A DNA stretch of 64,000 nt from a virus (taxonomy: Duplodnaviria; Caudoviricetes). The notes below the pieces were generated by a model that saw only the letters and a list, made by a program, of their open reading frames with translations, did no database searches and was not told the DNA's origin. The position numbers and the translations under genes were made by a program. The stretch is taken from positions 126,019 through 190,018 of the IMG/VR virus record IMGVR_UViG_3300028603_000021; one strand, written 5' to 3'. Below, in pieces: positions 11,001 to 64,000 of the stretch; within the stretch, counting starts at the first letter, position 1, and each line of letters starts with the position of its first letter.

Positions 11001-11866
11001 TCCCCGTCTTCTCCTACTGGGGCGGGGTTTATCTTCGCCTCACGCGGATCTTCGCCGCCCTTCAGTTCTTTTACCTTATCTTCAAGAGCATCTTTCAGCT
11101 TCTCTTTGACGCCCTTAAACAGCTCTGACAGCTTTGTATGAGCAAACGAAGTGCGGTAAGAGTACTTCCCACCCTTGTCTGGAGCCATCTGTTGGGTACT
11201 GTAGTCTGCGCCCTCTTCGAATCGCTCTGGTGCGTATGCTTCTTCGTCTAGGCCTGGTGACCAGCGTGCTTCTCCCACCTTGTACATGAGACGCCGGGCT
11301 GCCCTGTCTTTCGCAACCCTGTCAAGCTCTTCTTGGTCTTGAGACTGGGCTTCATACGGGTTCTCTTCGATCACCCAGACGGCATCTTCTTTGTCTATGT
11401 TTGCGTTAAGCCACTGACCACCTATGCGATACGCACCGGTTTCGGTATTCACGGCTGTATACCCGTGCGGCACACGAGAAACTATACGCTCACCCTTGTC
11501 GTTCAGCGTAACATAGTCGTCGAGCGAGCCGCCTCTCATGTCAGCCGCTTTCATAGTGTCTATCATAGATTTGTGCACCTCTTCATGTAGCTCGGTCTTA
11601 TATCCTCTCCAGGCTAGTATGTCAGGTATAGCCATGAAATAGTATACACTGTCTCTAGGGATATACGTAACTCCGTCAGAGGAGTAACCCTTTGTGTTCT
11701 CACCAGGGGCAAGCATAAAAACACCGTCACCTAGTATCAAGTCTAGGTGCCTCTTAAGCTTGACGTTGTTAGAGGACACGAAGAATGTCTGCTCGCTCTG
11801 CACCCATATGATGTCAGCGGCGCTGGTATCCTCAGAGTCGTTGATAAGTGTTACTCTGTAGTACAT
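8069..11866 (-). CDS. Large protein with SWI2/SNF2-like SF2 helicase module
   Basis: HGSYGIGKT (I), VVAPK (Ia), IDESG (II), LTGD (III), TTAAKFGFSL (V), WNP...QMSGRFHR (VI). Confidence 0.75.
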   Translation of the reverse strand: MYYRVTLINDSEDTSAADIIWVQSEQTFFVSSNNVKLKRHLDLILGDGVFMLAPGENTKGYSSDGVTYIPRDSVYYFMAIPDILAWRGYKTELHEEVHKSMIDTMKAADMRGGSLDDYVTLNDKGERIVSRVPHGYTAVNTETGAYRIGGQWLNANIDKEDAVWVIEENPYEAQSQDQEELDRVAKDRAARRLMYKVGEARWSPGLDEEAYAPERFEEGADYSTQQMAPDKGGKYSYRTSFAHTKLSELFKGVKEKLKDALEDKVKELKGGEDPREAKINPAPVGEDGEPMSGVIFSKGLGLAFDTSIYDEAVAELKKAYPNFVNADWHIVPNPKGRPFTDEEKTLQNPTNSERANPVYIQGTTEGLVRVIVPDEYEEDWYTLPIDLVEKGDVVSLNPRDPVPPFPAVLDAQEQAKRDEISAGRGEALRNITVTSPITQRPTYSPEKAAAIHVEGLYTPGDKMPPSGMRIFASFKGREYQRYVLSQITDLKAYEIGGGPRGVHGAFLHGSYGIGKTLMSCAWYAIMSSKKNPRDDKKMLIDPGKQAMFVVAPKMNTDSFADEYKKFTKQSAMVITGDRQSRLEKWKQLIDMANRGEMPGAVILPASLYRMEVNSDDREYAIDAKMLQLMIRGGSYAGNKVEGKHVGGMVIDESGQYVNVGTNRREVFNEILDDLYMSNALTLTLTGDAMGNSATDTISQAAFIDAGVRQNQEGLRESLTVLMRPTIRPKRNSPRVWRDAFSPAKLVRRIGSAITTIDSKYVAGDKYGMVYTDPVVQPMGATWGELHDIAVSKLLNIFNKEATGRANDTVKARALAFVSILMNMSYGATSAPRLLDYDIGYDSLISGLVSPEYGYTAEEIKAVQAGIGDYLRRTTEMVHVVGGSPSEVRLPRMGMDTKTRDEIFIEELNKHSSTPHFGSRVMRDLNHVVGSWHVPALDYIKTSIESEFGGGVRPNGKNKKIGVAGFSRVAIDKLHDELKAKYGNNVLVQVINGDTTPKEARAIEKAHEAEKDRHVITLVTTAAKFGFSLPADVSYRTPMWNPASGEQMSGRFHRDPFQLHISTEVLSSGASEYMKSSSEEKAEARRTLISRMIGSQEFLKAVEDGKPIDIAEVLAELSKDNDSEEGLISPNAAMEEVDGLMDYLRTKKTDKLKREHSDFTPQEKEEFKLGQRQAKEKAYGPVKERDRIIAAAEKLEKQLAEQAKRAAKKKPVRQSPPQPTAAVAARETEPKTRAKKSVVVHKKLFDVPTLTRNPLYEEWRRRNGNS

Positions 11867-11867
11867 C

Positions 11868-12779
11868 TTATATCCCCATGTTACTCATGATTATATTGGT
11901 CATAGCCCTGAACTTTTCTGGAAAAGCGGTTTCAAGGTAATCCGGGTTGTTAAACCGCAGAGCGAACGTCTCTGCGAAATCATCGCTGGGAGACGCTTTG
12001 GCTAGCTGGCTTACCGGCGTAGCGTGGTTAGCCCTCTTCCATGTCCTGGATGTTGGCGTTCCCAAGTAGCTAGCCCAACCTCCGCTGCCCTTCTTGCTCC
12101 AGACATCCTTGCCCAGGACATCACCCAGCTGAGAAACTTGCCCGTCAGCAGAGAGCTTAGCGAAGAGCAAGTGCCCAACTGCGTGGAACACAGAATAAGT
12201 AGCAACACTGATACCGCTAGCCTTTCCTTCTACCTTGGGAAGAAGTGGAGTATGTATGTAGCGGAAGAAATCTGGGTATACCTCAAGCTCGCCCCTGAAC
12301 TTACGCCCAGCAAACGAATACTTAGCTGCTATTATAGTATATCCGAACTTGTTGGTATCGTCTCTTGGAACGTTCCTTATGGCAGATAGTCCTGCGTTGA
12401 CAGGCAGCCTGCCCATGTTCTTCAGAGCAGAAAGCAGTATCGCGCTAGAGTACTTGGGTATGTTGTAGATTTCGTACCCAGCTACTGCCAGATCCATCTC
12501 GGGGTTCCACTCGTGGAGCTTTTCGTTAGAGATATCGCCTTTTTCATCGTAGATGGGCAGGTCGCTCGGCAGTACTCCGGCTTCCTTGGCTCCGTGTAAG
12601 CTGTCTTGCGTGAGGGCGTCTATGCTTGGCGCAAACTGTCCAGCCTTGTACGGAATGGCATTAGTGGGGTTAAGGTCTCCTGGCATGACGGGAGACTCTG
12701 GGTCACCAACGCGAACATGCTGAGCACCGTCGTTCCAGTTCTCGTCGCTTGTCATTGAATCCCAGTCACTCATGTCCAA
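11868..12779 (-). CDS. Zincin-like metallopeptidase-fold protein with degenerate motif
   Basis: HAVGH in place of HExxH, followed by SPSDDFAETF and NPDYL...PEKF. Confidence 0.5.
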   Translation of the reverse strand: MDMSDWDSMTSDENWNDGAQHVRVGDPESPVMPGDLNPTNAIPYKAGQFAPSIDALTQDSLHGAKEAGVLPSDLPIYDEKGDISNEKLHEWNPEMDLAVAGYEIYNIPKYSSAILLSALKNMGRLPVNAGLSAIRNVPRDDTNKFGYTIIAAKYSFAGRKFRGELEVYPDFFRYIHTPLLPKVEGKASGISVATYSVFHAVGHLLFAKLSADGQVSQLGDVLGKDVWSKKGSGGWASYLGTPTSRTWKRANHATPVSQLAKASPSDDFAETFALRFNNPDYLETAFPEKFRAMTNIIMSNMGI

Positions 12780-13101
12780 ACCCCGATACCACGTCGAATA
12801 TAACCTTCTCTTCGCGTGGTGTTATCTTTCCTATGTTGCGAAACTTATTACCTAGGTATGTAGCGAGCGAGTGGGCGTCGTCGTCGTCCCATGTTCTCAT
12901 CTTGTTGAACCCCAACACCGGAAACGACACGTTGTTAGAGTTACTCTCTACCAAGCTGACTAGATCAACCGGGTAAGGCTGTTCTGAAAACGCAGTCTCC
13001 GGCGACAGGGCGTATGTAACCTCACCGTCAGACACTAAGACAGACTTCAGACGGAAGACGTTATCCTCGTCATAGTACGAAAGGGTGTTAACCCAAAGCA
13101 T
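12766..13101 (-). CDS. Hypothetical protein
   Basis: Overlapping gene in the operon. Confidence 0.55.
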   Translation of the reverse strand: MLWVNTLSYYDEDNVFRLKSVLVSDGEVTYALSPETAFSEQPYPVDLVSLVESNSNNVSFPVLGFNKMRTWDDDDAHSLATYLGNKFRNIGKITPREEKVIFDVVSGFGHE

Positions 13102-23158: not shown

Positions 23159-24283
23159 CTAAAGCGGGGCAGCTTCTCGCTTCACTGAAAGGTGCGAGTT
23201 TTGGATGCCCGAAAGCACCCCGAACACGTCTGACCCCTTCTCCACGTCGGCCAGTTCCTGACCGAAGACAATCATATTACGTGCTGCGTGGGTATCTCTG
23301 TCCAAAGAATACCCACAGTCGCAGGTATACACCCGCGTTGCTAGAGAATGCTTGTTTAGGCACCCGCAATGTGGACATAGCTGGGTGGTCGGCAGGCTAC
23401 GGTTCAACATTAGGTTGGCGGAGTTGTGTTGCAACTTCGCCTTTACTCTCCCTAGTATTGACCCATGAACTTGTCTGCCAAACAACCCCTTCTGCCAGTT
23501 AGTAATCATCTCGTCTTGGAATATCACGCGAGTTCTGCTTAGTGCGCGAATAACCTTATTACTAGCGTCCTCTTTACGGTTTGCCATGCGCTCGTGTTCA
23601 CGCTCTAGTTGGTGCTTGGCCTTGTACCAGTTGCTGCTGCCCCGCTGCTTGCGGCTTAATGCCTTGTTGAGACGGCGAAGCTTGGTCTGGTCTTGGCTGA
23701 AATTAACCTTAGTGCCGTCCGAAAACGTCAATGCGTCGGAGATGCCCATGTCCATACCAACCACCCCGGTAATTTGAGCTTCCTCTTCCGGCAATCTTAC
23801 GCAGACGTGCAGGTAGAAACCACTAGGCTTCCACACCAAGTCTGCCTTGCGGATATCTGGGGAGTCGGGAAGTTGACTAAGACCCCTGACCTTTAAGGGC
23901 GCACGCAGCTTCTGTAAGCGTACTCTACCGCCCGAGATATTGAACGTCTGGTTAGATAGTGGAATACTACGAAGAAACCGCTTGAACTTGAGCCTGCCCA
24001 CCCGCCTGCCCCGCTTCTTACTTACGGACAATCCTTTGAGACTATCCCACAGCTGACGGTATAGCTGCTGCTTCATCTGCGAGGACAGCTTTTGCAACCT
24101 CACAGTTTCAAATTCCTCCCCGCGCTTAACCGTGATGTCATTTGATGTGGTGTCCACCACCCTAAAATCCTCGTGAGACAACAACCAATTGTAGTACCAT
24201 TTCGCTTCTATAAACAACTGGCGAAGATACTCGTTGTGACCTTTAAGTTTTAGTCTGAACACCTTGTGTCTCACAATTGACAC
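23159..24283 (-). CDS. tnpB: RNA-guided endonuclease TnpB
   Basis: VVGMDMG (RuvC-I), LSRKQRGSSNWYKA, TTQLCPHCG..CDCG zinc ribbon, DRDTHAARN. True start is probably the GTG at 24274. Confidence 0.9.
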   Translation of the reverse strand: MSIVRHKVFRLKLKGHNEYLRQLFIEAKWYYNWLLSHEDFRVVDTTSNDITVKRGEEFETVRLQKLSSQMKQQLYRQLWDSLKGLSVSKKRGRRVGRLKFKRFLRSIPLSNQTFNISGGRVRLQKLRAPLKVRGLSQLPDSPDIRKADLVWKPSGFYLHVCVRLPEEEAQITGVVGMDMGISDALTFSDGTKVNFSQDQTKLRRLNKALSRKQRGSSNWYKAKHQLEREHERMANRKEDASNKVIRALSRTRVIFQDEMITNWQKGLFGRQVHGSILGRVKAKLQHNSANLMLNRSLPTTQLCPHCGCLNKHSLATRVYTCDCGYSLDRDTHAARNMIVFGQELADVEKGSDVFGVLSGIQNSHLSVKREAAPL

Positions 24284-24311: not shown

Positions 24312-24709
24312 CTGTGACCAGACTCAAGAGAAAACCACATGTTGTATATAACCTTAGCTACCACCTGGTGTGGTGCCCTAAGTATAGACGCCCCGTTCTT
24401 GTGGATGAAATTGCTACGCGGCTTGAGGAAATTCTGCTGGAAAAGGCCGAAGAGCTGGGCGTTACCGTAGAAAGTCTGTCTATCCAACCAGACCACGTAC
24501 ACCTATTTACTAGGACAGAACCGCGACACGCCCCGCAGTTTGTAGTTAACCAGCTGAAAGGAATTTCCAGCCGACGACTAAGGGAAGAATTCCCGTCTCT
24601 GAAATCAAGGCTACCCACATTGTGGACACGTAGTTACTTCGTAGATTCTGTAGGAGTGTTAAACGAATTCACCGTCAGGAAGTACATCGAGAGTCAGAGG
24701 GGGAAATAG
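24305..24709 (+). CDS. tnpA: IS200-family Y1 (HUH) transposase TnpA
   Basis: YHLVWCPKYRR, PDHVHL, LKGISSR, LWTRSYF, KYIESQ. Confidence 0.95.
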   Translation: MSTVTRLKRKPHVVYNLSYHLVWCPKYRRPVLVDEIATRLEEILLEKAEELGVTVESLSIQPDHVHLFTRTEPRHAPQFVVNQLKGISSRRLREEFPSLKSRLPTLWTRSYFVDSVGVLNEFTVRKYIESQRGK

Positions 24710-24772
24710 ACGCTCTCATCCCCCGCATAAATACGGGGGCTTTCTCGCTAAGTGTCGTAAGGGCTCTTTCAG

Positions 24773-49971: not shown

Positions 49972-52443
49972 CTAGCCTATAACTAAGGCCTCCTTCACAC
50001 CGCTGTTAACGAACCCTGGAGAGCTGATAGGATATATCACCCTTCCGCCGTTGCCAGCGTAACATACACCTGACAGCCCGATTTCACTGTGTTTGGTGAC
50101 AGGGATCGACTCAAAAACCCCGGTGTCCAGGTTAAACCTCACAAATCCTGTCTGCTGTGGTGCGTAAGCATAGTTTCCGATTGTGACAGCTGTTTCCCCG
50201 ACAAAGTTCTGTGGGGGAGTCTCATCCATATAGACTGTCACCCATGAATCAGACGCTGGAAGATAGTTTAGTATCACGTAGTTCTCTATTAGCCTGCCCT
50301 CGGTAGCATCCCATCTCATGTGTGTACCAAACACAACCAGTTTATCCGCCGTGTGCGCAAAGCTTAACGACAGAGACATAGTAGAGTTAAGAGGATCTTG
50401 GAGAGGAAACGAGAAAGTCGCCCCTGGGGTGGAAGAAACCCCGTCCTGAGAATATCTCTGTATAAAGATGTATGGGTACAAGCCGCTACGCCTTGTAGCT
50501 ATGATAAAATCCCCGTTTGGAGCTTCCATACCAGCAGCTGATGGTATAGTTCCTGAACCAGTAAGCAGGGGCAGGTTTGTGCTTGTCAGGGTATCAACAT
50601 CTAACGTAACTGGCTGTGACGTTCCGTTGAGGATACCAACAAACTTTGAACTAGTCTGCCATTTACCTAACGCATACCCTAATGTCTTTGTGAGTGGGAT
50701 ATCTCCTACATATGCATGGTTCCCGTCTGTCAGGGTTGATACGGAGTAAGACTTAGGGGAGTAGTTGTAGGTCAGGGCATACACCGGGTTTTGCGGTGTC
50801 GGAACTTCGTTCTGAGGGACAACCAGCTCTGGTGTCAGCTCTGCACTCATGGGCATAGACCATGTGCTGTCCCACGGCGGATAGAATCCTGGCTCTATGC
50901 TGGTAGGAAGTTCCCTGGTGATTCCGAACTCTAGCCACTCGCTCCCGGCTTCTCCATCAGTCACTTTCAGTATGCCTGCTCCTATGTCGGAATACATCAG
51001 TATCCCAGCAGTATCAGCAGCTAGAACGGCGAACTCGTCTGGGCTCTGACCGCTACCAGCCGTTAAACGCTTGACTGACTTATCTGTGAAGTTTATCTCT
51101 GCTAGTATCCCTGTATCTCCAGGGAAATAAGCCCTGTCACCGACAACAAGAGGCAGAGCCATGTAGTTTATATAAGGGTGGACTGCGCTGTTGTAAGGTA
51201 TCTCTGTGATATTCCAGGTTTCTAGGTCTATGAAGGCCATGTTGTTAGTGTTGTCGTCTTGGATGAAAAGAACCCCGGAAGGAGACATAGCAAATTTATC
51301 CATGTCATAAACTATCTCAAGGTCAGCTTGATGGGTTTTAACTCCGGTTTCGTGGTCTATCTCGATCACCGTAGTTCCTTCTGGGTATGCGATAGAAGGA
51401 TTACCCTCGGTGATGATATTTCCGTTGAGCGGATTTACCGAAAAGGTTTCGCTGCCCTTGTAGGTAGCATCGTAGTCGTAAGACCATGCAAGTGACCCGT
51501 CAAGGACGTTGTATGCATATATCTTCTCGTAGTCGGACAGAAACACCTTAGTGCCGTCCAGAGAGTGCTTGACGTTGCAGAGGACATTCATACCCCAGTC
51601 AACACTCATACCTGCGCCGTAGGTCGAGTCTACTTGTATCGCCTGTCCGTCCCACCACAGGCGGAACACGGGGCTGCCGGGAGAGTTGTAAGGCACAACG
51701 ACCATCGACCCGTCTGGCAACGCTATCATGTTAGAGTAGTCACTGGTGCTCAGGGACGTAGCAGCAAGCGTTCCTTGCCTTATATCTGTTATCAGGTATA
51801 CGTCAGCACCGTTGAGCATCCATATCTTATCTTTGTCTACCAACACGTCCTCAGCGTCGAGTGTTCCCTCCCCAGTGCCGAACCAGTCGGCTTTATAGAC
51901 AAGAACCTCACCGCTGGTTTTATCTATCACTGTCAACGGGCTGTATAGAACATAGGTGTCGCCTGTGTCAACCACACCGGTATAGTAGGTGTTTGGGTTC
52001 ACTCTTTCGGCTATGATGTTCTTGATAGACTTATGGGTGTATACCCTAGGTGTGCTGATGGCAGGAAAATCCCCGCCGAAAATGAAAGAATAATCTAGCT
52101 CAGACCCAGTAGTAGTGTTGTACAGAACCGGACTCCCGTCCTCTCGGAAGATTATAAGGTATGCTCCGTATATGCTTGACACAACAAAACCAGAGGTAAC
52201 AGCGTCTGTTGGTTCTAGTATGTAGTCGTAGACACCCTCCTCTGGCGGCGTGTCTAGTCTGGCATACCCGTTGCGCGTAATCCCTATCTTAGGAAATATG
52301 TTGTTCAGTTCCGATGTTGATGCTACTAAGCGACCCTTAACCAAGGTTGAGTTCCTCCTAGACCGTATGATACCACGTGGTGGGTGGATATATCTGATGT
52401 TTCTCACAGCTAGACAGGGTAACATCAGACGTGTGTAAACCAC
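49972..52443 (-). CDS. Large beta-rich (beta-propeller-like) protein; start uncertain
   Basis: SLDGTKVFL, YNVLDGSLAWSY, MSPSGVLFI blade-like motifs; solitary minus-strand gene. Confidence 0.55.
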   Translation of the reverse strand: MVYTRLMLPCLAVRNIRYIHPPRGIIRSRRNSTLVKGRLVASTSELNNIFPKIGITRNGYARLDTPPEEGVYDYILEPTDAVTSGFVVSSIYGAYLIIFREDGSPVLYNTTTGSELDYSFIFGGDFPAISTPRVYTHKSIKNIIAERVNPNTYYTGVVDTGDTYVLYSPLTVIDKTSGEVLVYKADWFGTGEGTLDAEDVLVDKDKIWMLNGADVYLITDIRQGTLAATSLSTSDYSNMIALPDGSMVVVPYNSPGSPVFRLWWDGQAIQVDSTYGAGMSVDWGMNVLCNVKHSLDGTKVFLSDYEKIYAYNVLDGSLAWSYDYDATYKGSETFSVNPLNGNIITEGNPSIAYPEGTTVIEIDHETGVKTHQADLEIVYDMDKFAMSPSGVLFIQDDNTNNMAFIDLETWNITEIPYNSAVHPYINYMALPLVVGDRAYFPGDTGILAEINFTDKSVKRLTAGSGQSPDEFAVLAADTAGILMYSDIGAGILKVTDGEAGSEWLEFGITRELPTSIEPGFYPPWDSTWSMPMSAELTPELVVPQNEVPTPQNPVYALTYNYSPKSYSVSTLTDGNHAYVGDIPLTKTLGYALGKWQTSSKFVGILNGTSQPVTLDVDTLTSTNLPLLTGSGTIPSAAGMEAPNGDFIIATRRSGLYPYIFIQRYSQDGVSSTPGATFSFPLQDPLNSTMSLSLSFAHTADKLVVFGTHMRWDATEGRLIENYVILNYLPASDSWVTVYMDETPPQNFVGETAVTIGNYAYAPQQTGFVRFNLDTGVFESIPVTKHSEIGLSGVCYAGNGGRVIYPISSPGFVNSGVKEALVIG

Positions 52444-56509: not shown

Positions 56510-59257
56510 ATGAAGGATTTCGTCAAGTTCCCCGACCAGATCATCGAGGACAGCATATTTTCAACGACTCTGGCAAGACAGAACTGGCAGAGCAAGTATC
56601 AGTACGACAACGAAACCCCGCTAGAGACATTCAAAAGGGTAGCGAAGGCACTAGCAAGCGTAGAAAAGGACTCTGACCTCTGGTACGGTAAGTTCCTAGA
56701 TATGATGGTCAAGACAGAGGAGATAGAGCCTGGTAAGTACAGAGCAGTAGGTCTGAAGAACACCTTTGGCGGCAGGATAACGGCGAACGCCGGTACTGAG
56801 TACAACGGTACTACACTCATGAACTGCTTCATAATGTTGCCTCCTCGTAACGCGACGGTTTCGTATACACACAGGTTCGAAGACGGAAGTAGCTACGATG
56901 TTTCTTATGATACTCAAGGAACACCAGACAACCTCAAGAACATCATGCTCACACTCCTAGAGCAAGCTGAGACACTGAAATCTGAGGGTGGTTACGGTAT
57001 CAACTTCGGTTTCATCCGTCCTAGGGGGTCTGTAGTGAACAGCCTTGGTATCAAGCACCCAGGAGTAGTCAGCTACATGGATATCTGGGACAAGGTAGCT
57101 GAGGTCATCGTCAAGGGAGACTCTGACGGCTACCAGGACATTCTTGAGAACTTCCTTGGTACTTCTAGCCAGGACGTAGCTCAGAAGATGAAGAAGCAGG
57201 CTAGGAAGGGCGCACAGATGGCCGTTCTACCTGTATGGCATCCTGACATAGAAGAGTTCGTCAAAGCTAAGCAAGAACCTGGTAGGCTTACCAAGTTCAA
57301 CCTCTCTGTCCTGATGGACGATTCCTTCCTAGAAGCAGTAGAGAACGATGAGATGTACGAGCTGTGGTTCCCGGTAGCAACCCCCTACACCTTCGATTTC
57401 CAGAGCAACACAGGCTTCGTAGACGTTGTAGACGGGAAGATGGCTTCAGGAACGGCGTATTCCATAGACAACCTCAGTGAGGCACATGCTTCGAAGGCAG
57501 ACTACTTCGTAGATCCCTATAACAGCGTGTGGGTGAAACGTATCTACAAGCTCGTCAAGGCACGCGACCTGTATGATCTGATCATGACGTCTACCTACAA
57601 CAGAGCAGAGCCTGGTGTGCTGTTCTATGACAGTATGCAGAAGAACAACCCGATATCATACATAAGTGAAGTTACAGGAACAAATCCTTGTGGTGAGGTG
57701 CCTGGTTTCCTAACAGTATGCTTGTTAGGTAATATCAACCTTACTCAGTATGTGAAACTAGACAGAACATTCGACTGGGAAGAGTACGTATCTGATGTGC
57801 ACACATTCGCACGCGCCCTAGACAACGTGAACGACATCACCAAGAACAGCTTGCCTCAGTATGATTGGGCTACAGAGAACATCCGACAGTACGGGTTGGG
57901 CATCAACGGTCTCGGATCAGCACTGATAATGATGGGTATGCCCTTTGGTTCTGAAGAAGCCAAGGCCTTCACAGAGAGAGTCACATGGTTGAAGGAAGAC
58001 ATCACTTGGAAAGCCTCAGCTCTCTTGGCAGAAGAGAAGGGAGCCTTCCCAGGCTTCAGCGAGAAGTTCTTCGACACCTACTGGTTCAGAGAGTTCACCA
58101 ACATCTCGGATGAAACGAAAGCCCTCCTGAGGAAGCACGGAGCACGCAACGGCAAGACTACTACAAACGCCCCCAACGGAAATACAAGCATCATCTGTGA
58201 CGTTACCTCTAACGGCATCGAACCCGTCTTTATGCTGGAGTACAACCGTACTTACATCGCAGACAAGTGGCCTGAAGGAATGACCAAGGACAACATCACC
58301 GAGCTTCTAGAAGAGAGCAGCGCTGGGGGAGCGGTTGTCTACGAAGGAGAGTACGCAGGGCAGCACTACTACTACGAGCCCCACAACAGGGGTCTGTGCA
58401 TCGTTGAGAAGGTCAGAGATTACGGCTACAGCTGGGTGCTTGCCAACTACCCAGAAGACGTTTCTGGAAATTACCTGAGCACCACAGAGACGCTCAGCGT
58501 GCAAGACCATGTAGACTCTCAAGCTATCGTACAGAGGAACACGAACCAGTCGGTTTCCAAGACAGCCAACCTTCCTGCTGGCTACGATTTCGAAGACTTC
58601 AAGCAGCTCTACCTAGACGCTTGGAAGAAGGGCTTGAACGGCCTGACTACCTATGTAGCGGGTTCCATGGAATCTGTGCTCTCCAAGGTCGAAGACACCA
58701 AGGAAGAGGTAAGCCTAGACAACGTGCTGAAGGACGGTGTGGTACTGCCTGAGACCTTTGTCAACGGAGACACAACGGTTATCAAGCGTGAGGACTCTAA
58801 GTTCTACATCCACTTCAGCTACCACCCAGAAGACGTGTCTCACACTATGCCTGTGGCTATGTGGATCTCCAGCAACAACACAACTCCACTGAGGCAGGTG
58901 AACGGCGCTGTGAAAGAGGTAATCACCCTGCTAGAGAAGGCAGGCATCAACCCAGACCTGATACAGACGACTCTAGAGAAGATCAAGAACGACAAGGACA
59001 ACGACAGGCTTGCTAGGGCTATATCTATGGCTCTGAGGCATAACGTGCCTATCCCTTACATCGTAGACGCCCTTAACCGTGTTGATGATGTCTATGTATC
59101 TGACTTGCTCTTTGCAGCCCGGAAATTCCTCTCTTCTCATGTGGAAGATGGCACAGCTGTCTTAGGGGAGACGTGCTCAGAGTGTGGCAGCGACCAGATA
59201 ATCTTCGAATCAGGCTGCACCAAATGTCTCTCGTGTGGAGCCAGTAACTGTTCGTAA
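56510..59257 (+). CDS. nrdJ: Ribonucleotide reductase class II (adenosylcobalamin-dependent)
   Basis: TLMNCF, EGGYGINF, AEPGVLF, TNPCGE, VCLLGNINL, C-terminal CSECG...GCTKCLSCG; no nrdB nearby; AGGAGG RBS before the ATG at 56510. Confidence 0.85.
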   Translation: MKDFVKFPDQIIEDSIFSTTLARQNWQSKYQYDNETPLETFKRVAKALASVEKDSDLWYGKFLDMMVKTEEIEPGKYRAVGLKNTFGGRITANAGTEYNGTTLMNCFIMLPPRNATVSYTHRFEDGSSYDVSYDTQGTPDNLKNIMLTLLEQAETLKSEGGYGINFGFIRPRGSVVNSLGIKHPGVVSYMDIWDKVAEVIVKGDSDGYQDILENFLGTSSQDVAQKMKKQARKGAQMAVLPVWHPDIEEFVKAKQEPGRLTKFNLSVLMDDSFLEAVENDEMYELWFPVATPYTFDFQSNTGFVDVVDGKMASGTAYSIDNLSEAHASKADYFVDPYNSVWVKRIYKLVKARDLYDLIMTSTYNRAEPGVLFYDSMQKNNPISYISEVTGTNPCGEVPGFLTVCLLGNINLTQYVKLDRTFDWEEYVSDVHTFARALDNVNDITKNSLPQYDWATENIRQYGLGINGLGSALIMMGMPFGSEEAKAFTERVTWLKEDITWKASALLAEEKGAFPGFSEKFFDTYWFREFTNISDETKALLRKHGARNGKTTTNAPNGNTSIICDVTSNGIEPVFMLEYNRTYIADKWPEGMTKDNITELLEESSAGGAVVYEGEYAGQHYYYEPHNRGLCIVEKVRDYGYSWVLANYPEDVSGNYLSTTETLSVQDHVDSQAIVQRNTNQSVSKTANLPAGYDFEDFKQLYLDAWKKGLNGLTTYVAGSMESVLSKVEDTKEEVSLDNVLKDGVVLPETFVNGDTTVIKREDSKFYIHFSYHPEDVSHTMPVAMWISSNNTTPLRQVNGAVKEVITLLEKAGINPDLIQTTLEKIKNDKDNDRLARAISMALRHNVPIPYIVDALNRVDDVYVSDLLFAARKFLSSHVEDGTAVLGETCSECGSDQIIFESGCTKCLSCGASNCS

Positions 59258-59280
59258 TACTGTTACGAAAGGAGTAATAC

Positions 59281-59481
59281 ATGTATACTTTAGTACTATC
59301 ACTTATCATATCCTATGCCATAACAGCTGTAGTCGTGTTCTTTGACTCGCACCGTAAGCTAGTCAGAGAGTCTGTCCACGAGGAGACGTTATCGCCCCCT
59401 ATGATAACAACAGCAGCGAAAGTCATAGCATCAGTGATAGGGGCTGTTGTATGGCCTCTGCTCCTATGGAGGAGTAGATGA
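59281..59481 (+). CDS. Small two-TM membrane protein
   Basis: Hydrophobic, VVWP motif; AAGGAG RBS. Confidence 0.55.
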   Translation: MYTLVLSLIISYAITAVVVFFDSHRKLVRESVHEETLSPPMITTAAKVIASVIGAVVWPLLLWRSR

Positions 59482-59672
59482 TCACCATCTTGGCGGTTAT
59501 CTATGCAGCCATTGCTATCTACCTGTACGTGTACCTGGTAACTGTAACCTCAGACTTGGTAGGTGACAGCATGCTAGAGATCATACGTGCTCATGCTACC
59601 TACATCGCCTACTCTGTTGTATGGCCTGTCTATATGCTGGTGTCGGCAGCAGAAAAACACGGAGAAGAATGA
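59478..59672 (+). CDS. Small two-TM membrane protein (paralog-like of the previous gene)
   Basis: VVWP motif; ATGA overlaps. Confidence 0.55.
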   Translation: MITILAVIYAAIAIYLYVYLVTVTSDLVGDSMLEIIRAHATYIAYSVVWPVYMLVSAAEKHGEE

Positions 59673-60139
59673 TAGTAGCTGGCACAGGACACAGACCTGA
59701 CAGGCTGACAGCCTTCGGTGAGCCGTATACCACAGACCAGCACAACGCTCTGAAGTGGTACATAGGCGCTTGGCTCGTAGAAAACGAAGCCACACAGGTT
59801 ATCAGCGGCATGGCTCTTGGTTTCGATCAGGCTCTAGCTGCTGCTGCTATGAACAACCACATACCCTTTGTAGCTGCTGTGCCCTTCAAGGGGCAAGAAG
59901 AGAGGTGGAACCTGCAAGCTAAGGACTACTACAGCAGGCTCTTGGATGCAGCAGAAGAAGTTGTCTATGTAAGCCCTCCTGGGTATGCAGCCTGGAAGAT
60001 GCACGCTAGGAACAAGTGGATGGTAGACAAATGCGATCTGGTGCTTGCTCTCTACGACGGAAGCAGCAGGGGAGGAACCTATGACTGTGTTAGGTATGCA
60101 AACAACAAAGGAAAGCAGGTAATCAACATCTGGAAGTAG
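59669..60139 (+). CDS. SLOG superfamily YspA/DUF1273 protein
   Basis: GTGHRP, ISGMALGFDQ, RNKWMVD, YDGSSRGGTYDCVRYA. Confidence 0.85.
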   Translation: MIVAGTGHRPDRLTAFGEPYTTDQHNALKWYIGAWLVENEATQVISGMALGFDQALAAAAMNNHIPFVAAVPFKGQEERWNLQAKDYYSRLLDAAEEVVYVSPPGYAAWKMHARNKWMVDKCDLVLALYDGSSRGGTYDCVRYANNKGKQVINIWK

Positions 60140-60156
60140 TTTTAGGCAACAAAACA

Positions 60157-60203
60157 CGAGAAACCCCGTCCTAGACGGGGTTTTTAGCATAGTTTTTCGC
60201 GGC
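60157..60203 (-). ncRNA. Putative small RNA core, copy 1
   Basis: Conserved 47-nt core directly downstream of TTGACA(60245)-17-TATGAT; no ORF. Confidence 0.55.
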
Positions 60204-60320
60204 AAGCCGCTACCTTATCATACCATGCTGTAATCACCTTGTCAAGCCCTTGCGGGTACCCTCAGAGCCGCCTTTCAGTTCTAGCAGTAAACCCTAGGGG
60301 TGTTTTCAGCTCACAAAACA

Positions 60321-60367
60321 CGAGAAACACCGTCTAGGACGGTGTTCCTGATCAAGCTTTTCGCGGC
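60321..60367 (-). ncRNA. Putative small RNA core, copy 2
   Basis: Same core downstream of TTGACA(60410)-17-TATAAT; compensatory stem change relative to copy 1. Confidence 0.55.
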
Positions 60368-60466
60368 CCGCTCTTTGGTCCATTATACCATATCAGAAAC
60401 CTGTTGTCAAGGGCTTAGGGGACTCTCCTGCAACCTAACTGGTATGCAGAAGAATCCCTAGGGGTA

Positions 60467-60655
60467 CTACCTTAGTTGGTGAACTAGTAGTTCCTTACCT
60501 GACGCAGTTACCATAAGTACGTCAGCCTCGGTTATGGTAACTCTAACGTGTGGAAGGAGCCCTGCCACCTTCAGAACCTGGTAGTACAGGCTCTTTCCGA
60601 TAGCCTTGCGCATCGTTTCCCCGGAAACCGGGGTGTTGTGTATGTAGTAGTTCAC
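60467..60655 (-). CDS. Small early hypothetical protein
   Basis: GGAGG RBS before the GTG at 60655. Confidence 0.5.
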   Translation of the reverse strand: MNYYIHNTPVSGETMRKAIGKSLYYQVLKVAGLLPHVRVTITEADVLMVTASGKELLVHQLR

Positions 60656-60814
60656 TCTTCCTCCTAGTCCTGGTAGATGGCGATAGGGTGCGAGAGGGTT
60701 TCGGTGTCTTTGAGAGTCATGAGCCATACCATGTGAGCCTCTTTCTAGGGATCGCACTTCCTCTGTTACCAGCTTATCATGAGACTGTCTAGACTGTCAA
60801 ACGCGCCCCTCCCC

Positions 60815-61021
60815 CTAGGGCACTACCTCGCTTATCGTAGAGAGGGCAAACGCGAAGCTTTCCAGGGCACGCCGTTCGGTCGTGTGCTCGGATGTTGTGA
60901 CCTCGGAGGGTGTCTCTGTCACAACGCGATACGCCTGCATCTGGGAGAAATCTTGGAGGAGCGTGATTGTCGTGTGCCTCTCCTCCTCCAGGTAAAAAAC
61001 GACTCGTCTGAGTTCCAGCAT
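60815..61021 (-). CDS. Small early hypothetical protein
   Basis: ORF between a promoter and a hairpin. Confidence 0.5.
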   Translation of the reverse strand: MLELRRVVFYLEEERHTTITLLQDFSQMQAYRVVTETPSEVTTSEHTTERRALESFAFALSTISEVVP

Positions 61022-61155
61022 GATGATACCCTGCCTTTCTTTTTGGGATAGATTGCCTGATACCAGCTTACGCTCCGAGCAGCCGTTTCGTCAACCGATC
61101 CTGGAACTGCCTGTGCGACACAAAAGCGCCCCTCCCCCAAAGGGCACACATGATT

Positions 61156-61356
61156 CTAGTACCGGATTGCCTCCCGGATTGCCTTTGCCTGCTCCCGAGA
61201 GACCCGGAGCGTGGTAGCCCCGTACAGGTCTAGCTCTAGAGCGCGAAGGTCTAGGAGTCGGATAAGCTGTGAGGCACGCATTGTGCCTCTCAGCAAAGGG
61301 CGTGTGACCGTAAATGTATCGGTCGCACGCAGGTACCGGAACGTGAAACGCATCAC
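61156..61356 (-). CDS. Small early hypothetical protein
   Basis: AGGAGG RBS. Confidence 0.55.
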   Translation of the reverse strand: MMRFTFRYLRATDTFTVTRPLLRGTMRASQLIRLLDLRALELDLYGATTLRVSREQAKAIREAIRY

Positions 61357-61436
61357 TTACCTCCTACTCCCCCTGGTACCATCGTATCGTACTTCCTAGC
61401 TAAGTGCAAGGAAGGGGCGGTTTCCCGCCCCCGTCC

Positions 61437-61799
61437 TCACCCTCGGAAGTACCGGCTCCGGTTTAGACTCCTGTGCGTGTCGTTCGCACGGTTTGCCCAA
61501 ACCGTCTTCACGAGGTTCCGCCCTGGTATGACTACCAGAACAAGGTGGTACCGGCTATCTTGCCGGTACTCCGTGCGGAGAACGACCTTTGACAGCTTAC
61601 CGCTATCATCGGTTTCGGCTTCGACCACTTCGCAGTCTGAGACTTTGATGTAGTCAGGAAGGACAATGTTCCTAAGAACACGGTCACTCACGGACGCTTC
61701 CAGCGCGTGCCGAGAGTACGTCAGCCGCAAGACGCGGCCTATCGCTGCTACTGCGCCGGTAAGAGTTTCCGGCCAGTAGACTTCCGGATGGTAGAGCAT
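61437..61799 (-). CDS. Conserved phage protein (YSRHA...VKTVWAN..DTH)
   Basis: Own promoter and downstream hairpin; function not assigned. Confidence 0.6.
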   Translation of the reverse strand: MLYHPEVYWPETLTGAVAAIGRVLRLTYSRHALEASVSDRVLRNIVLPDYIKVSDCEVVEAETDDSGKLSKVVLRTEYRQDSRYHLVLVVIPGRNLVKTVWANRANDTHRSLNRSRYFRG

Positions 61800-61938
61800 G
61801 TTCTGCCCTTTCTAGGGGTAGCCTCCCCTGCTACCATGTTACCAGGTGGCCTGTCCAGCTGTCAAACCGGGCAGGCCGTTCCTGCTAGAGCGTTGGGGGG
61901 GGGGCGGCTCCCATAGTGGGCGGTTCAACGAAGGGCGC

Positions 61939-62265
61939 TCACGGCTGCCCCCCCCCGGACGCGGCGAGGGCATGCAGGTGCCTCTCTGCGCGGCTAAGTC
62001 GCGCAAGTGCCTCCGACCGCTCCCCGATTGCCGCTCTCAGTTCTGCCGCCTCGTCACGCGGGGCAACTCGGCGCTTCGGCATCGCGTCGTTAGCTGCCTC
62101 CCACGGCGTGCTGCCCGTGCCGCAGCGGGCGGGGGAGTCCTCATCCATGGGCATGACGACGTACATACCGGCATACATGCCGGAGAGGTCGTAGCCAAGC
62201 CAGTACTCGTACTCCCCTAGACGCCGGACGAGTTCTGTCAGCGTTAGGGGTTCGGGGGCGGTCAC
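61939..62265 (-). CDS. Displaced cassette gene carrying repeats A and B
   Basis: RDEAAELRAA...LARLSRAERHLHALAASGGGQP. Confidence 0.7.
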   Translation of the reverse strand: MTAPEPLTLTELVRRLGEYEYWLGYDLSGMYAGMYVVMPMDEDSPARCGTGSTPWEAANDAMPKRRVAPRDEAAELRAAIGERSEALARLSRAERHLHALAASGGGQP

Positions 62266-62339
62266 GGCTGCCCCTCGGACGCGGCGAGGCGGCGCACGTT
62301 CTCACGTGCAGAGATGAATCGCGTGATACGTTCCAGCAT
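62262..62339 (-). CDS. 25-aa ORF ending in repeat B
   Basis: MLERITRFISARENVRRLAASEGQP; AGGAGG RBS. Confidence 0.55.
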   Translation of the reverse strand: MLERITRFISARENVRRLAASEGQP

Positions 62340-62408
62340 GTGCTTCCTCCTAAGATAAGTGTTGCACAGGTAGCCCCGGGCTGTCAAACCTCCCGGGGCT
62401 GTGAGCGG

Positions 62409-62570
62409 TTAGTAGAAATCTAGGAGTTCCTCCTCAGCAGCGGCGTTCTCTATCAACGCATCGGTGTGGCAGACAACGCACAGCACATCCGCCGGGTTAA
62501 CCTCATACCGGACGTCCCCCTCCCAAAACAGGGCTCCGCAGTCTACACATTCATGTAGTGTGTCGTTCAT
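62409..62570 (-). CDS. 53-aa zinc-finger protein
   Basis: Manual translation with CVDC...CVVC; AGGAGG RBS. Confidence 0.55.
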   Translation of the reverse strand: MNDTLHECVDCGALFWEGDVRYEVNPADVLCVVCHTDALIENAAAEEELLDFY

Positions 62571-62606
62571 GCCTTACCTCCTGATTCTATCGTCGCACAG
62601 AAACGC

Positions 62607-62834
62607 TTACCTGTCAAACATCCTGATAAGGTTACTCTCACAAGCCGCAAGGTGCAGCTCTGCATCTGTATGGTCTGTCCCGTAAGCATTACTCAGGTCT
62701 AAGTCAAAACCCTCCAAGGCAGTCATAGCGTCTGCCCAATCACGAAGCGCTACTAGCGCCTTGTTGTCTTTCCCTAGTAGCAGTGTAAGTGCAGTTATTG
62801 CCTCATGTAGCTGCATATTTATCCTTTCATCCAA
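62607..62834 (-). CDS. Small early hypothetical protein
   Basis: ORF in the early cluster; start may be at MQLHE. Confidence 0.5.
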   Translation of the reverse strand: MDERINMQLHEAITALTLLLGKDNKALVALRDWADAMTALEGFDLDLSNAYGTDHTDAELHLAACESNLIRMFDR

Positions 62835-62956
62835 ACGTCAAAGACTCCGCCGTGTACCCTCCGGAGCACCCTGCATGTAGCCCAAGCCTGTGACTCGTTA
62901 GCGAAGACACCCCATGTAACTACCCTACCGGGTAAAACCCTTACTACTCGGAACAT
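62819..62956 (-). CDS. 45-aa early hypothetical protein
   Basis: AGGAGG RBS and its own promoter place the start at 62956, not 63106. Confidence 0.55.
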   Translation of the reverse strand: MFRVVRVLPGRVVTWGVFANESQAWATCRVLRRVHGGVFDVWMKG

Positions 62957-63017
62957 CGTTACCTCCTGGTACCAGTCTATCACGTACCGATCGTCTGTCA
63001 AACTTCGGAACGAAGAG

Positions 63018-63064
63018 CGAGAAACATCGTCCAGGACGGGGTTTCTAGCAAACGGTTTCGCGGC
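63018..63064 (-). ncRNA. Putative small RNA core, copy 3
   Basis: Same 47-nt core downstream of TTGACA(63106)-17-TATGAT. Confidence 0.5.
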
Positions 63065-63162
63065 CCACTCCCCCTTTATCATACCATACCGGGCTCTAGC
63101 TGTCAAGTGGGTGTAGGATTCCGCCCCGTGCCGTATCGGTACAGGGCGGAAACCCTAGGGGT

Positions 63163-63462
63163 TTAGTCTATGTGCGTCCAAACATACCCGCCGAAGTCAG
63201 GTACTTGCTTCGCAACCTCCTTTACGTATTCGTTGCACAGTGCGGCTTTATAGTCCATGGACTGCGACAGAACAGGGAACCGGAGCCGCATACCAGTACC
63301 GCTGTATACCTTGGTGATGATACCGGCTCTTGCAAGTGCCCGGGCGTACTTAGTGTTGCCGGGCATTCTAACCTCAGCAAAACCGCAGGGGTACCAGCCG
63401 AACTCACTCGGATGTACCGTGTCTAAAGCGTGTCGGACGGCGGCCTCATGTATCTTACGCAT
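63163..63462 (-). CDS. Conserved phage hypothetical protein (PCGFA...QSMDYK)
   Basis: Recognisable phage motif; own upstream promoter. Confidence 0.6.
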   Translation of the reverse strand: MRKIHEAAVRHALDTVHPSEFGWYPCGFAEVRMPGNTKYARALARAGIITKVYSGTGMRLRFPVLSQSMDYKAALCNEYVKEVAKQVPDFGGYVWTHID

Positions 63463-63613
63463 CTTGTCCTACCCTTCTGGTAGCCCGGTTATCGCCCTGT
63501 ACCGGCGTCAGCAGCAGCGTGAGGGTTACACACCGGGCTCCTACCTACATGTTACCGGGGATCGTCCCGGCTGTCAAACTGGCGTGCCACCTAGAGCAAG
63601 GTGGCACATCCGG

Positions 63614-63889
63614 TCAGATGCCGTGCTTGCGGCAATACTCTTGCACGCGCAGGCTCTCGTCGCGAAGGTATGCACGGTGACGGCACTCACGTTCCCAAGC
63701 CGGGAACGTTTCGTCCCAACGCACGCGGTCTACGGCGGCGTCGTGCTGCGCCTCCGCCTGGTAGCGGTGGTAGCAGAACGCTACGACTTCGCTGTCGTAG
63801 TCGCGCATGACGGCGGTTTCGTACCCGCCGGTCGTGAGTTGCACGGTGCTCACCCGTGCGAACTCGGTTTCGGTGCTCAGGCGAAACAT
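63614..63889 (-). CDS. Early hypothetical protein
   Basis: AAGGAGG RBS before MFRLSTE; RVSTV...YETAV motif. Confidence 0.5.
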   Translation of the reverse strand: MFRLSTETEFARVSTVQLTTGGYETAVMRDYDSEVVAFCYHRYQAEAQHDAAVDRVRWDETFPAWERECRHRAYLRDESLRVQEYCRKHGI

Positions 63890-64000
63890 ACTGCCTCCTT
63901 GGTGCCCCCGTCCGGGGCGGCCTGTAACAATCATGACATGGATTCGATCGGATTGCAAGGGGGGGGGGGGAACCGCCCCCCCCCCCCCCGCCCCGATGTA

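Follow-up and report, generated by a model that had tools for sequence, protein, structure and literature searches.

Three repeated promoter-hairpin modules in an uncultivated 190-kb phage: candidate sibling small RNA genes with a host-like hairpin

Bacterial small RNAs (sRNAs) of the OmrA/OmrB type occur as siblings whose 5′ and 3′ ends are near-identical and whose centres diverge (PMC4211561). Here we describe three units of comparable layout in an uncultivated phage (Duplodnaviria; Caudoviricetes), within a 64,000-nucleotide (nt) stretch, called the window throughout, that covers positions 126,019 to 190,018 of the IMG/VR record IMGVR_UViG_3300028603_000021. Each unit is an ungapped minus-strand module made of a ACCCCTAGGG box, a TTGACA-17-TGnTAT(G/A)AT promoter and a 47-nt core that holds no open reading frame (ORF). 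OmrA/OmrB of E. coli, as well as PrrF1/2 and AbcR1/2, resemble the modules in being small, in their tandem arrangement and in their use of orphan promoters and intrinsic terminators, and by analogy the conserved 5′ segment of the modules would be the candidate seed. The modules differ in that they are phage-encoded, are expected to yield RNAs of ~60 nt rather than 82-88 nt, have no Rfam kinship and carry a terminator hairpin that copies a repeat of the host genome.

Three further systems share traits with the modules. In RNA anti-CRISPRs (Racrs), as here, a virus carries a solitary host-repeat hairpin immediately downstream of a strong promoter and without an ORF (PMC10651486). The repeat mimicked by the modules, however, is not a CRISPR repeat and has no known Cas link, and the additional conserved 5′ motif has no Racr counterpart. 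The promoter early stem-loops (PeSLs) of T4-like phages have a repeated stem-loop and a sigma70-like early promoter in common with the modules (PMC4122927, PMC2839356), and both are found where the early region is plastic, made up of small ORFan genes and subject to insertion or deletion of cassettes between close strains. A stem-loop likewise precedes the promoter in modules 2 and 3. PeSLs end with a Shine-Dalgarno (SD) sequence and the start codon of a gene, whereas the modules carry a 47-nt non-coding core with its own terminator and number only three. Moreover, this phage is not T4-like but, judged by its portal protein, distant kin of the Thermus phages YS40 and TMA. Finally, the repetitive extragenic palindromes (REPs), the bacterial interspersed mosaic elements (BIMEs) and the uptake-sequence pairs that double as terminators are, like the host element in question, short, highly amplified, species-specific palindromes. 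The phage hairpins match the host palindrome and sit at gene ends in a REP/BIME-like manner. Neither a REP-associated tyrosine transposase (RAYT) nor a Y1 transposase was found in the genome that bears the host element, though, and REPs do not normally stand behind dedicated strong promoters.

Anatomy and conservation of the modules

The original prediction, made from the letters of the window alone, had placed the three cores on the minus strand at 60203-60157, 60367-60321 and 63064-63018, and they read there exactly as quoted. The promoters carry TATGAT, TATAAT and TATGAT as their −10 hexamers, each with a 17-nt spacer and a TG extended −10, and are the three best consensus promoter matches within 59000-64000 (11/12, 12/12 and 11/12 positions). 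The cores start 13, 14 and 13 nt past the −10, in agreement with the 13-14 nt given before. A box is present in each module as claimed, although it lies 46, 45 and 46 nt upstream of the −35 in modules 1, 2 and 3 rather than at the 46-47 nt first counted. The box is palindromic, and the genome has the 10-mer ACCCCTAGGG at the three modules alone; for CCCTAGGG there are four occurrences in the window, where 0.95 are expected, and six genome-wide.

Full copies of the module are limited to these three in the 190,018-bp genome, as determined with a 30-nt degenerate pattern (reversed control, 0). A covariance model built from the three cores scores each of them at 81-87 bits (E 1e-19 to 3e-20), the next matches being hairpin-only and reaching at most 26 bits. 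The three cores hold no SD sequence and no common reading frame, in keeping with the predicted lack of a ribosome-binding site and ORF. A short peptide was rejected as their product: copies 1 and 3 share a frame started by ATG/TTG, in which copy 2 has TGA and TAG, and no SD precedes it.

Because the GTTTCT of the core 3′ end forms a stem with the 3′ margin of the middle (AGAAAC, AGGAAC or AAAAAC), the core hairpin is 10-13 bp long and the unpaired variable stretch is only ~7-9 nt. The sequences behind the earlier picture of invariant ends around a variable middle of about 13 nt were right, but the 3′ end and part of that middle turn out to be the arms of the hairpin. Copies 1 and 2 lie in tandem with a period of 164 nt and differ by a C-G to A-U double change in the stem, while copy 3 has two mismatches there, all as first described. 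In copies 1 and 2 the terminator-like hairpins stand 45-50 nt past the promoters, and the hairpin of module 1 is placed 22 nt beyond the stop of a convergent YpsA-like gene, with a T-rich run on the plus strand. A further stem-loop just upstream of the promoter has an 8-bp stem in module 3, takes the form CTGCA...TGCAG in module 2 and is less clear in module 1.

Conservation between the copies was assessed by aligning the 180-nt modules, and identity proved to be confined to islands. The box (12-13 of 13 positions identical), the −35 (7/7), the extended −10 (9-10/10), the 5′ motif GCCGCGAAA (8-9/9), the hairpin (14-16/20) and the tail (6/6) are alike in all copies, whereas the intervening sequences are 30-40% identical, which is the random level: 13-18 of 41-42 positions between box and −35, 4-5 of 13 in the promoter spacer and 3-5 of 12 in the initial transcribed segment. 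Since identity would run in unbroken tracts, and not in islands, after a recent duplication or gene conversion, this sequence pattern, with islands at fixed spacing, indicates an old duplication followed by selection on each island. It also argues against the view, named in the original prediction as what would follow from its refutation, that the modules are duplicated promoter-terminator junk. Obvious roles can be assigned to the promoter hexamers and the hairpin but not to the box and the 5′ motif, which are the features truly left to explain.

We tentatively propose that each module is a self-contained gene for a small non-coding RNA of ~58-63 nt and that the three genes are paralogues. 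A host sigma70-type RNA polymerase would start ~7 nt past the near-consensus extended −10, with predicted starts at A60211/G60210, A60376/A60375 and ~63071. The first ~30 nt of the transcript would be largely unstructured and would bear the invariant GCCGCGAAA, a candidate seed or protein-binding site, and the transcript would end in the 10-13-bp hairpin with its U-rich tail, the putative copy of a host palindromic repeat. Copies 1 and 2 are expected to terminate at the hairpin, with predicted 3′ ends near 60150 and 60314, and to be made in quantity early in infection; they would also close a 54-kb leftward early block against the convergent operon of the ribonucleotide reductase gene nrdJ and the YpsA-like gene. 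Copy 3, with its weakened hairpin, probably reads through. What is observed is the anatomy, the number of copies, the islands of conservation, the likeness to the host repeat and the persistence in strains; production of the RNAs, their end at the hairpin and an action of the 5′ motif in trans are what we infer.

Several observed traits are those of sibling sRNA genes. Copies 1 and 2 combine an orphan promoter with an intrinsic terminator and have no ORF between the two (copy 3 is without a good terminator), and the three paralogues have conserved 5′ and 3′ ends and a divergent centre. An unstructured 5′ half ahead of a terminator hairpin would be the classic layout of sRNAs that act by base pairing. 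The islands of conservation, the phage-specific box and 5′ motif, the persistence of the modules in strains and the wealth of RNA in this lineage, all described below or above, also speak for such genes. To this extent the small-RNA units first proposed, which are ORF-less, have near-consensus promoters and in copies 1 and 2 carry terminator-like hairpins, are borne out; conservation in related phages was not found, as described below. The features of the modules are listed in Table 1.

Table 1. Positions of module parts and neighbouring features in the window
Feature	Position	Strand	Remark
Module 1 upstream box ACCCCTAGGGTTT	60289..60301	−	invariant in all three modules
Module 1 promoter, TTGACA, 17 nt, TG-n-TATGAT	60217..60245	−	11/12 consensus positions, TG present
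Module 1 47-nt core: GCCGCGAAA, short variable stretch, hairpin, CTCG	60157..60203	−	87 bits
Module 1 hairpin (10-bp stem, UAG loop) and U-rich tail	60150..60183	−	terminator-like, z = −3.15
Module 2 upstream box ACCCCTAGGGATT	60453..60465	−	sequence
Module 2 promoter, TTGACA, 17 nt, TG-n-TATAAT	60382..60410	−	12/12 consensus positions
Module 2 47-nt core	60321..60367	−	85 bits
Module 2 hairpin (12-bp stem, AGGAACACCGTC/GACGGTGTTTCT) and U-rich tail	60314..60349	−	closest copy to the Deinococcales repeat, nhmmer E = 8.7e-8
Module 3 upstream box	63150..63162	−	begins directly after the stop of a 99-aa gene, 63163-63462
Hairpin between module 3 box and −35 (CCGCCCYG...CGGGGCGG)	63111..63149	−	loop inverted in one strain
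Module 3 promoter, TTGACA, 17 nt, TG-n-TATGAT	63078..63106	−	consensus match
Module 3 47-nt core	63018..63064	−	hairpin 63020-63046, 1-2 mismatches in every strain seen, no good U-tract, z = −0.06
Separate promoter directly after module 3	62974..63001	−	drives the next small gene via AGGAGG and ATG at 62965
Fourth CCCTAGGG in the window	60813..60820		overlaps the stop of a 68-aa gene; 14 nt before another early promoter; no core
Decayed half copy of the hairpin (GAAGAAACCCCGTCCTG)	50432..50448 (genome 176452)	+	hairpin-only
YpsA-like gene	59621-60139	+	convergent with module 1

A sequence reminiscent of the box was also seen in front of two early genes on the minus strand (window 60745-60765 and 61812-61832). 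These genes share a motif in the 5′ untranslated region, CCCTAGAAAG(A/G)GG, which lies 6-7 nt before the ATG in place of the usual AGGAGG, and the half-box within it resembles CCCTAGGG.

Genome setting and a possible role in cis

The window is the final 64 kb of the 190,018-bp record. Both ends of the record carry a common junction of a G-run, AACCGC and a C-run (genome 1-45 and 189960-190018, the latter corresponding to window 63942-64000; run lengths 9-20), from which we take the record to close into a circle or to be terminally redundant there. The assembly probably broke at the homopolymer pair, where the genome joins. About 50 TTGACA-N16-18-TAnnnT promoters lie on the minus strand at genome 1-50 kb and 186-190 kb, and with the circle closed they fall into a single leftward early block of small genes, ~54 kb in length. 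This block is assembled of single-gene units, each consisting of a hairpin, a TTGACA promoter, an SD sequence and a small gene. The genome, with a GC content of 50%, has 28 tRNA genes, all on the minus strand at genome 15143-36704, outside the window and within the early block, several of them directly behind TTGACA promoters; no tRNA or tmRNA was found in the window. An ORF-less promoter is not the default state in this genome, because most of the other early-block promoters are followed by AGGAGG and a start codon within ~10 nt, although several of the rest serve tRNAs or sequence that is non-coding.

Modules 2 and 1 are the last elements at the downstream end of the early block. They face a convergent plus-strand operon that encodes a class II ribonucleotide reductase (nrdJ) and the YpsA-like protein, a member of the SLOG group, whose gene ends at 60139. 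The cumulative GC skew is lowest at 151.5 kb and reaches its turning point, a maximum, at 186-190 kb, where the modules sit, so that their place is a convergence or terminus point, and a replication origin at the modules was rejected. A nut-type antitermination site (boxA, spacer, boxB) was rejected as well, since modules 1 and 2 have no downstream genes, face a convergent operon and carry terminator-like hairpins, and the genes downstream of module 3, the only one that has any, possess their own promoter.

The modules persist in near-identical strains of the phage that come from several studies. Over modules 1 and 2 the X2 and X3 contigs show zero differences, while flanking stretches of X3 differ by 1-2%. 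Three further contigs cover module 3, with the box, the promoter and the 5′ half unchanged; differences fall on the upstream hairpin (in its loop), on the core hairpin (in its arms) and on the tail, where CTCG becomes CTTG. Strain divergence is too low for a statistical test of constraint. In one strain (L106:546-590, compared with window 63111-63149) the loop of the upstream hairpin is reverse-complemented and its 8-bp stem kept, whereas the window, L105 and L107 are not inverted; by sequence, this is a hairpin-mediated inversion polymorphism. In L107 the core hairpin of module 3 combines copy-2-like with copy-1-like arms, a mosaic suggestive of exchange among the copies. Whole cassettes differ too, in that one X3 contig from activated sludge has 40 other bases in place of 60750-61121, which holds the 68-aa gene. 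Window 61900-62300 shows many joints, indels and loose ends, with depth inflated ~10-fold, as for a repeat common to other loci.

These surroundings bear on the main rival possibility, in our view unlikely though deserving of serious weight, that the modules are cis-acting regulatory cassettes of which any RNA is a by-product, that is, "empty" terminator-promoter-terminator units akin to PeSLs. They could serve as tandem, partly bidirectional terminators where transcription converges with nrdJ, as recombination points for the shuffling of cassettes or as places that hold RNA polymerase, in which case a regulator of phage or host origin would recognize the box and GCCGCGAAA as sites on the DNA. 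The single-gene units of the early block, the cassette differences between strains and the mosaic hairpin of L107 are all in keeping with such a role. So are the PeSL-like stem-loops just upstream of the promoters of modules 2 and 3 (PMC4122927), the position of modules 1 and 2 exactly at the convergence point and turn of the GC skew, and the palindromic box, which is what one would expect of a site for a dimeric DNA-binding protein. However, the modules end in a terminator and no gene where PeSLs end in an SD sequence and a start codon, and a near-perfect promoter that feeds only a terminator 50 nt away has no obvious purpose in cis. The invariant 9-nt motif, furthermore, lies inside the transcript at a fixed distance from both start site and hairpin, and the regulator of box or motif is hypothetical.

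The hairpin and a dispersed Deinococcales repeat

The most interesting property of the modules, and one that could not be seen from the window alone, is the likeness of their hairpin to a repeat that has been amplified ~200-fold in the genome of a probable host. A scan of one genome per prokaryotic species for CNCCGTCNNNGACGGNGTTTCTCG returned 25 loci, 12 of which lie on different contigs of a single metagenome-assembled genome (MAG), that of the uncultured Deinococcales bacterium CAXTKV01 (G005). With the relaxed pattern CCGTCNNNGACGGNGTTTCT and one mismatch allowed, this MAG gave 108 forward and 102 reverse matches against 0 and 1 in the reversed control, and other genomes of the same order (n = 60) gave 0-5 each. 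The repeat unit, (A)GAAACACCGTCC-N-GGACGGTGTTTCTCGAG, has the form of a nested palindrome, and GCGTCC-N-GGACGGTGTTCT often comes ~20 nt after it. Spread across more than 100 contigs of the MAG (GC content 61%), it occurs as single or inverted-pair units (for example L109:7019-7042, L114:1434-1457 and L119:6180-6203) and forms no arrays with spacers; in the examples inspected it sits just past stop codons. No Rfam family covers it.

Copy 2 of the phage hairpin (GGAACACCGTCCTAGACGGTGTTTCTCG) almost equals the host consensus, and copy 1 is a CCCCGTC/GACGGGG variant that is also present in the MAG. A profile of the host unit, run over the phage genome with nhmmer, matches only the three modules and two hairpin-only copies (E = 9e-8 to 5e-3), and its alignment spans the hairpin and the CGAG flank but stops there, short of the 5′ motif. 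The MAG has no instance of the 5′ motif joined to the hairpin, and the box is not enriched in it (5 matches against 2 in the control). By these comparisons the 5′ motif and the box are phage-specific, and the hairpin is borrowed from the host. What had been taken for a constant scaffold of the phage's own invention is, in other words, largely a copy of a terminator-like palindromic repeat of the host genome.

The C-G to A-U change between copies 1 and 2 must be seen in the same light. Because both variants pre-exist in the host repeat family, the change mirrors host variation, cannot be counted as covariation evolved in the phage and is weak evidence of selection on RNA structure; the observation was correct, but the compensatory meaning given to it is doubtful. 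Since the hairpin matches the MAG repeat, CAXTKV01-type Deinococcales are the probable host lineage, an assignment that is made by the repeat alone and that fits the distant kinship with Thermus phages. A plain terminator role for the hairpin is also possible, because one unrelated AT-rich IMG/VR viral contig, the only other such phage found, uses an identical hairpin as an ordinary terminator.

Likeness to a host repeat raises the prospect of mimicry, a more sharply defined version of the decoy role offered in the original prediction, in which short RNAs would display the host hairpin and titrate a host factor that recognizes it, for example an RNA-processing, termination, nucleoid or defence protein. 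Such decoys would be a non-CRISPR counterpart of RNA anti-CRISPRs, with GCCGCGAAA adding a second surface for binding or pairing; we judge both the decoy role and this parallel to be rather improbable. The roughly 210 copies of hairpin and CTCG tail in one MAG, set against the few matches in the rest of the order and in the controls, are in keeping with mimicry, as is the restriction of the profile matches in the phage genome to these hairpins. Furthermore, the full-length hairpins stand directly behind the strongest promoters of the region, just as Racrs are solitary host-repeat units directly after a promoter (PMC10651486). But the host repeat has no known binding partner or function, and the same hairpin can be read as an ordinary terminator, as the unrelated viral contig illustrates. 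Mimicry would also leave the conserved 5′ motif and the box unexplained, and the host itself is assigned through the repeat alone, with no TnpB homologue common to phage and MAG.

Elsewhere in the window, an element of the IS605 type was identified at 23159-24283, which encodes TnpB (OrfB_IS605 with a Cas12f-like TNB domain). A probable small Y1 transposase gene follows at ~24330-24715 on the strand opposite TnpB, near the GC-skew minimum and divergent strand switch at ~25.5 kb.

[quoted passage not shown] In its favour, the phage has the IS605-type element with TnpB just described, of whose left-end hairpin only CGAGAAA and a C-run are common to the cores, stems and loops being different; the host repeat resembles REP or MITE families in being dispersed and a nested palindrome; and three decayed hairpin-only copies occur elsewhere in the phage (the one in Table 1 and two outside the window, at genome 24190 and 125400). 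The 5′ part of copy 2 also weakly resembles the GGACGCGAAA segment of the host unit, a marginal result of local alignment (P ~0.02) that holds for copy 2 only and is not significant for copies 1 and 3. A Y1 transposase (PF01797), however, was not found in the MAG, although controls matched, nor was a homologue of the phage TnpB; as the MAG is incomplete, this is weak evidence. The host profile stops at the hairpin, and the combination of 5′ motif and hairpin is absent from the host. A relic origin is highly improbable, for in relics the islands would not stay identical, and their spacing fixed, behind three near-consensus promoters when the sequence between them has become random.

Relatives, weighing of the readings and significance

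By its portal protein the phage belongs to an uncultivated group, in which metagenomic relatives at 52-76% identity are nearer than YS40 and TMA at 41-43%. No isolated phage with nucleotide similarity to the region was found in a nucleotide search of 50,697 phage records. About a dozen studies have near-identical DNA in their runs, which come from landfill, activated sludge, soil and digesters.

Searches for the core beyond this phage were negative. No family of Rfam 15 was matched at the gathering threshold over the whole window, and at permissive settings the best weak matches were rnk_pseudo (20 bits, threshold 55) and RsmY (17 bits, threshold 57). Pattern scans of IMG/VR and of JGI metagenomes gave 54 and 22 matches, all of them chance matches in coding-like sequence without a hairpin. 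In the Logan relative L059, which has the same nrdJ-YpsA order, the convergence region is AT-rich and holds no module. Within reach of these searches, then, the core family is confined to this phage species.

A different kind of RNA was seen in another relative, L060 (Logan, 71% identity in the ribonucleotide reductase, RNR). It has a GOLLD RNA at 6816-7197 (191 bits against a gathering score of 150), located in a 1.6-kb gene-free gap with tRNA genes on both sides, and its positions 11289-12785 code for a TROVE protein, Ro60/Rsr-like in kind. From 10510 a TTGACA promoter drives a stretch that is non-coding and shows complementarity over long range (GGGGAACAG...CUGUUCUGGUUCCCC); a role as Y-RNA-like partner is conceivable for it. 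Y RNA identity of the cores themselves was rejected, as the phage described here has no TROVE gene in its genome and the cores have no closing long stem.

Our preferred and most economical interpretation, that the modules are three sibling small RNA genes, has to be weighed against several of these results. The original prediction had named a lack of conservation or covariation in related phages as telling against it, and this is in part what was found: beyond the lack of an Rfam family, the covariance model gave no match to the core over the full length of four related IMG/VR records (43-54% portal identity) or in ~71 kb around the reductase gene from five Logan loci (67-71% RNR identity), so that conservation or covariation across species is absent in the relatives searched. 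None of the sequencing runs that hold the region is confirmed as RNA, and the transcripts, their ends and their abundance are predictions. In the phage the complement of the motif (TTTCGCGGC) is confined to the antisense strand of the modules, which offers no phage target. The hairpin needs no function at the RNA level, being explained as a host-type repeat or terminator, and the only change in it that involves both sides of the stem has its counterpart in existing host variants. Copy 3, lastly, looks partly decayed, with its stem mismatches and the strains that have CTTG for CTCG. All of these points count against sibling small RNAs, and we put the probability of that interpretation at about 0.45.

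By sequence, the trio of orphan promoter, short RNA and terminator units is specific to this lineage and unmatched in Rfam. If the modules act only in cis, the PeSL idea of mobile promoter/stem-loop cassettes would extend to a phage group unrelated to T4, and if mimicry of the host hairpin proved functional, interest in it would be high. The likeness between hairpin and repeat provides a sequence-based host prediction for an uncultivated 190-kb phage, as well as a testable case in which a phage has the copy of a host repeat standing after a strong promoter. Should the RNAs prove real, a new family without an Rfam match would join the early small RNAs of phages, in a lineage where non-coding RNA is already abundant, as the 28 tRNAs of this genome and the GOLLD RNA and TROVE protein of a relative suggest.

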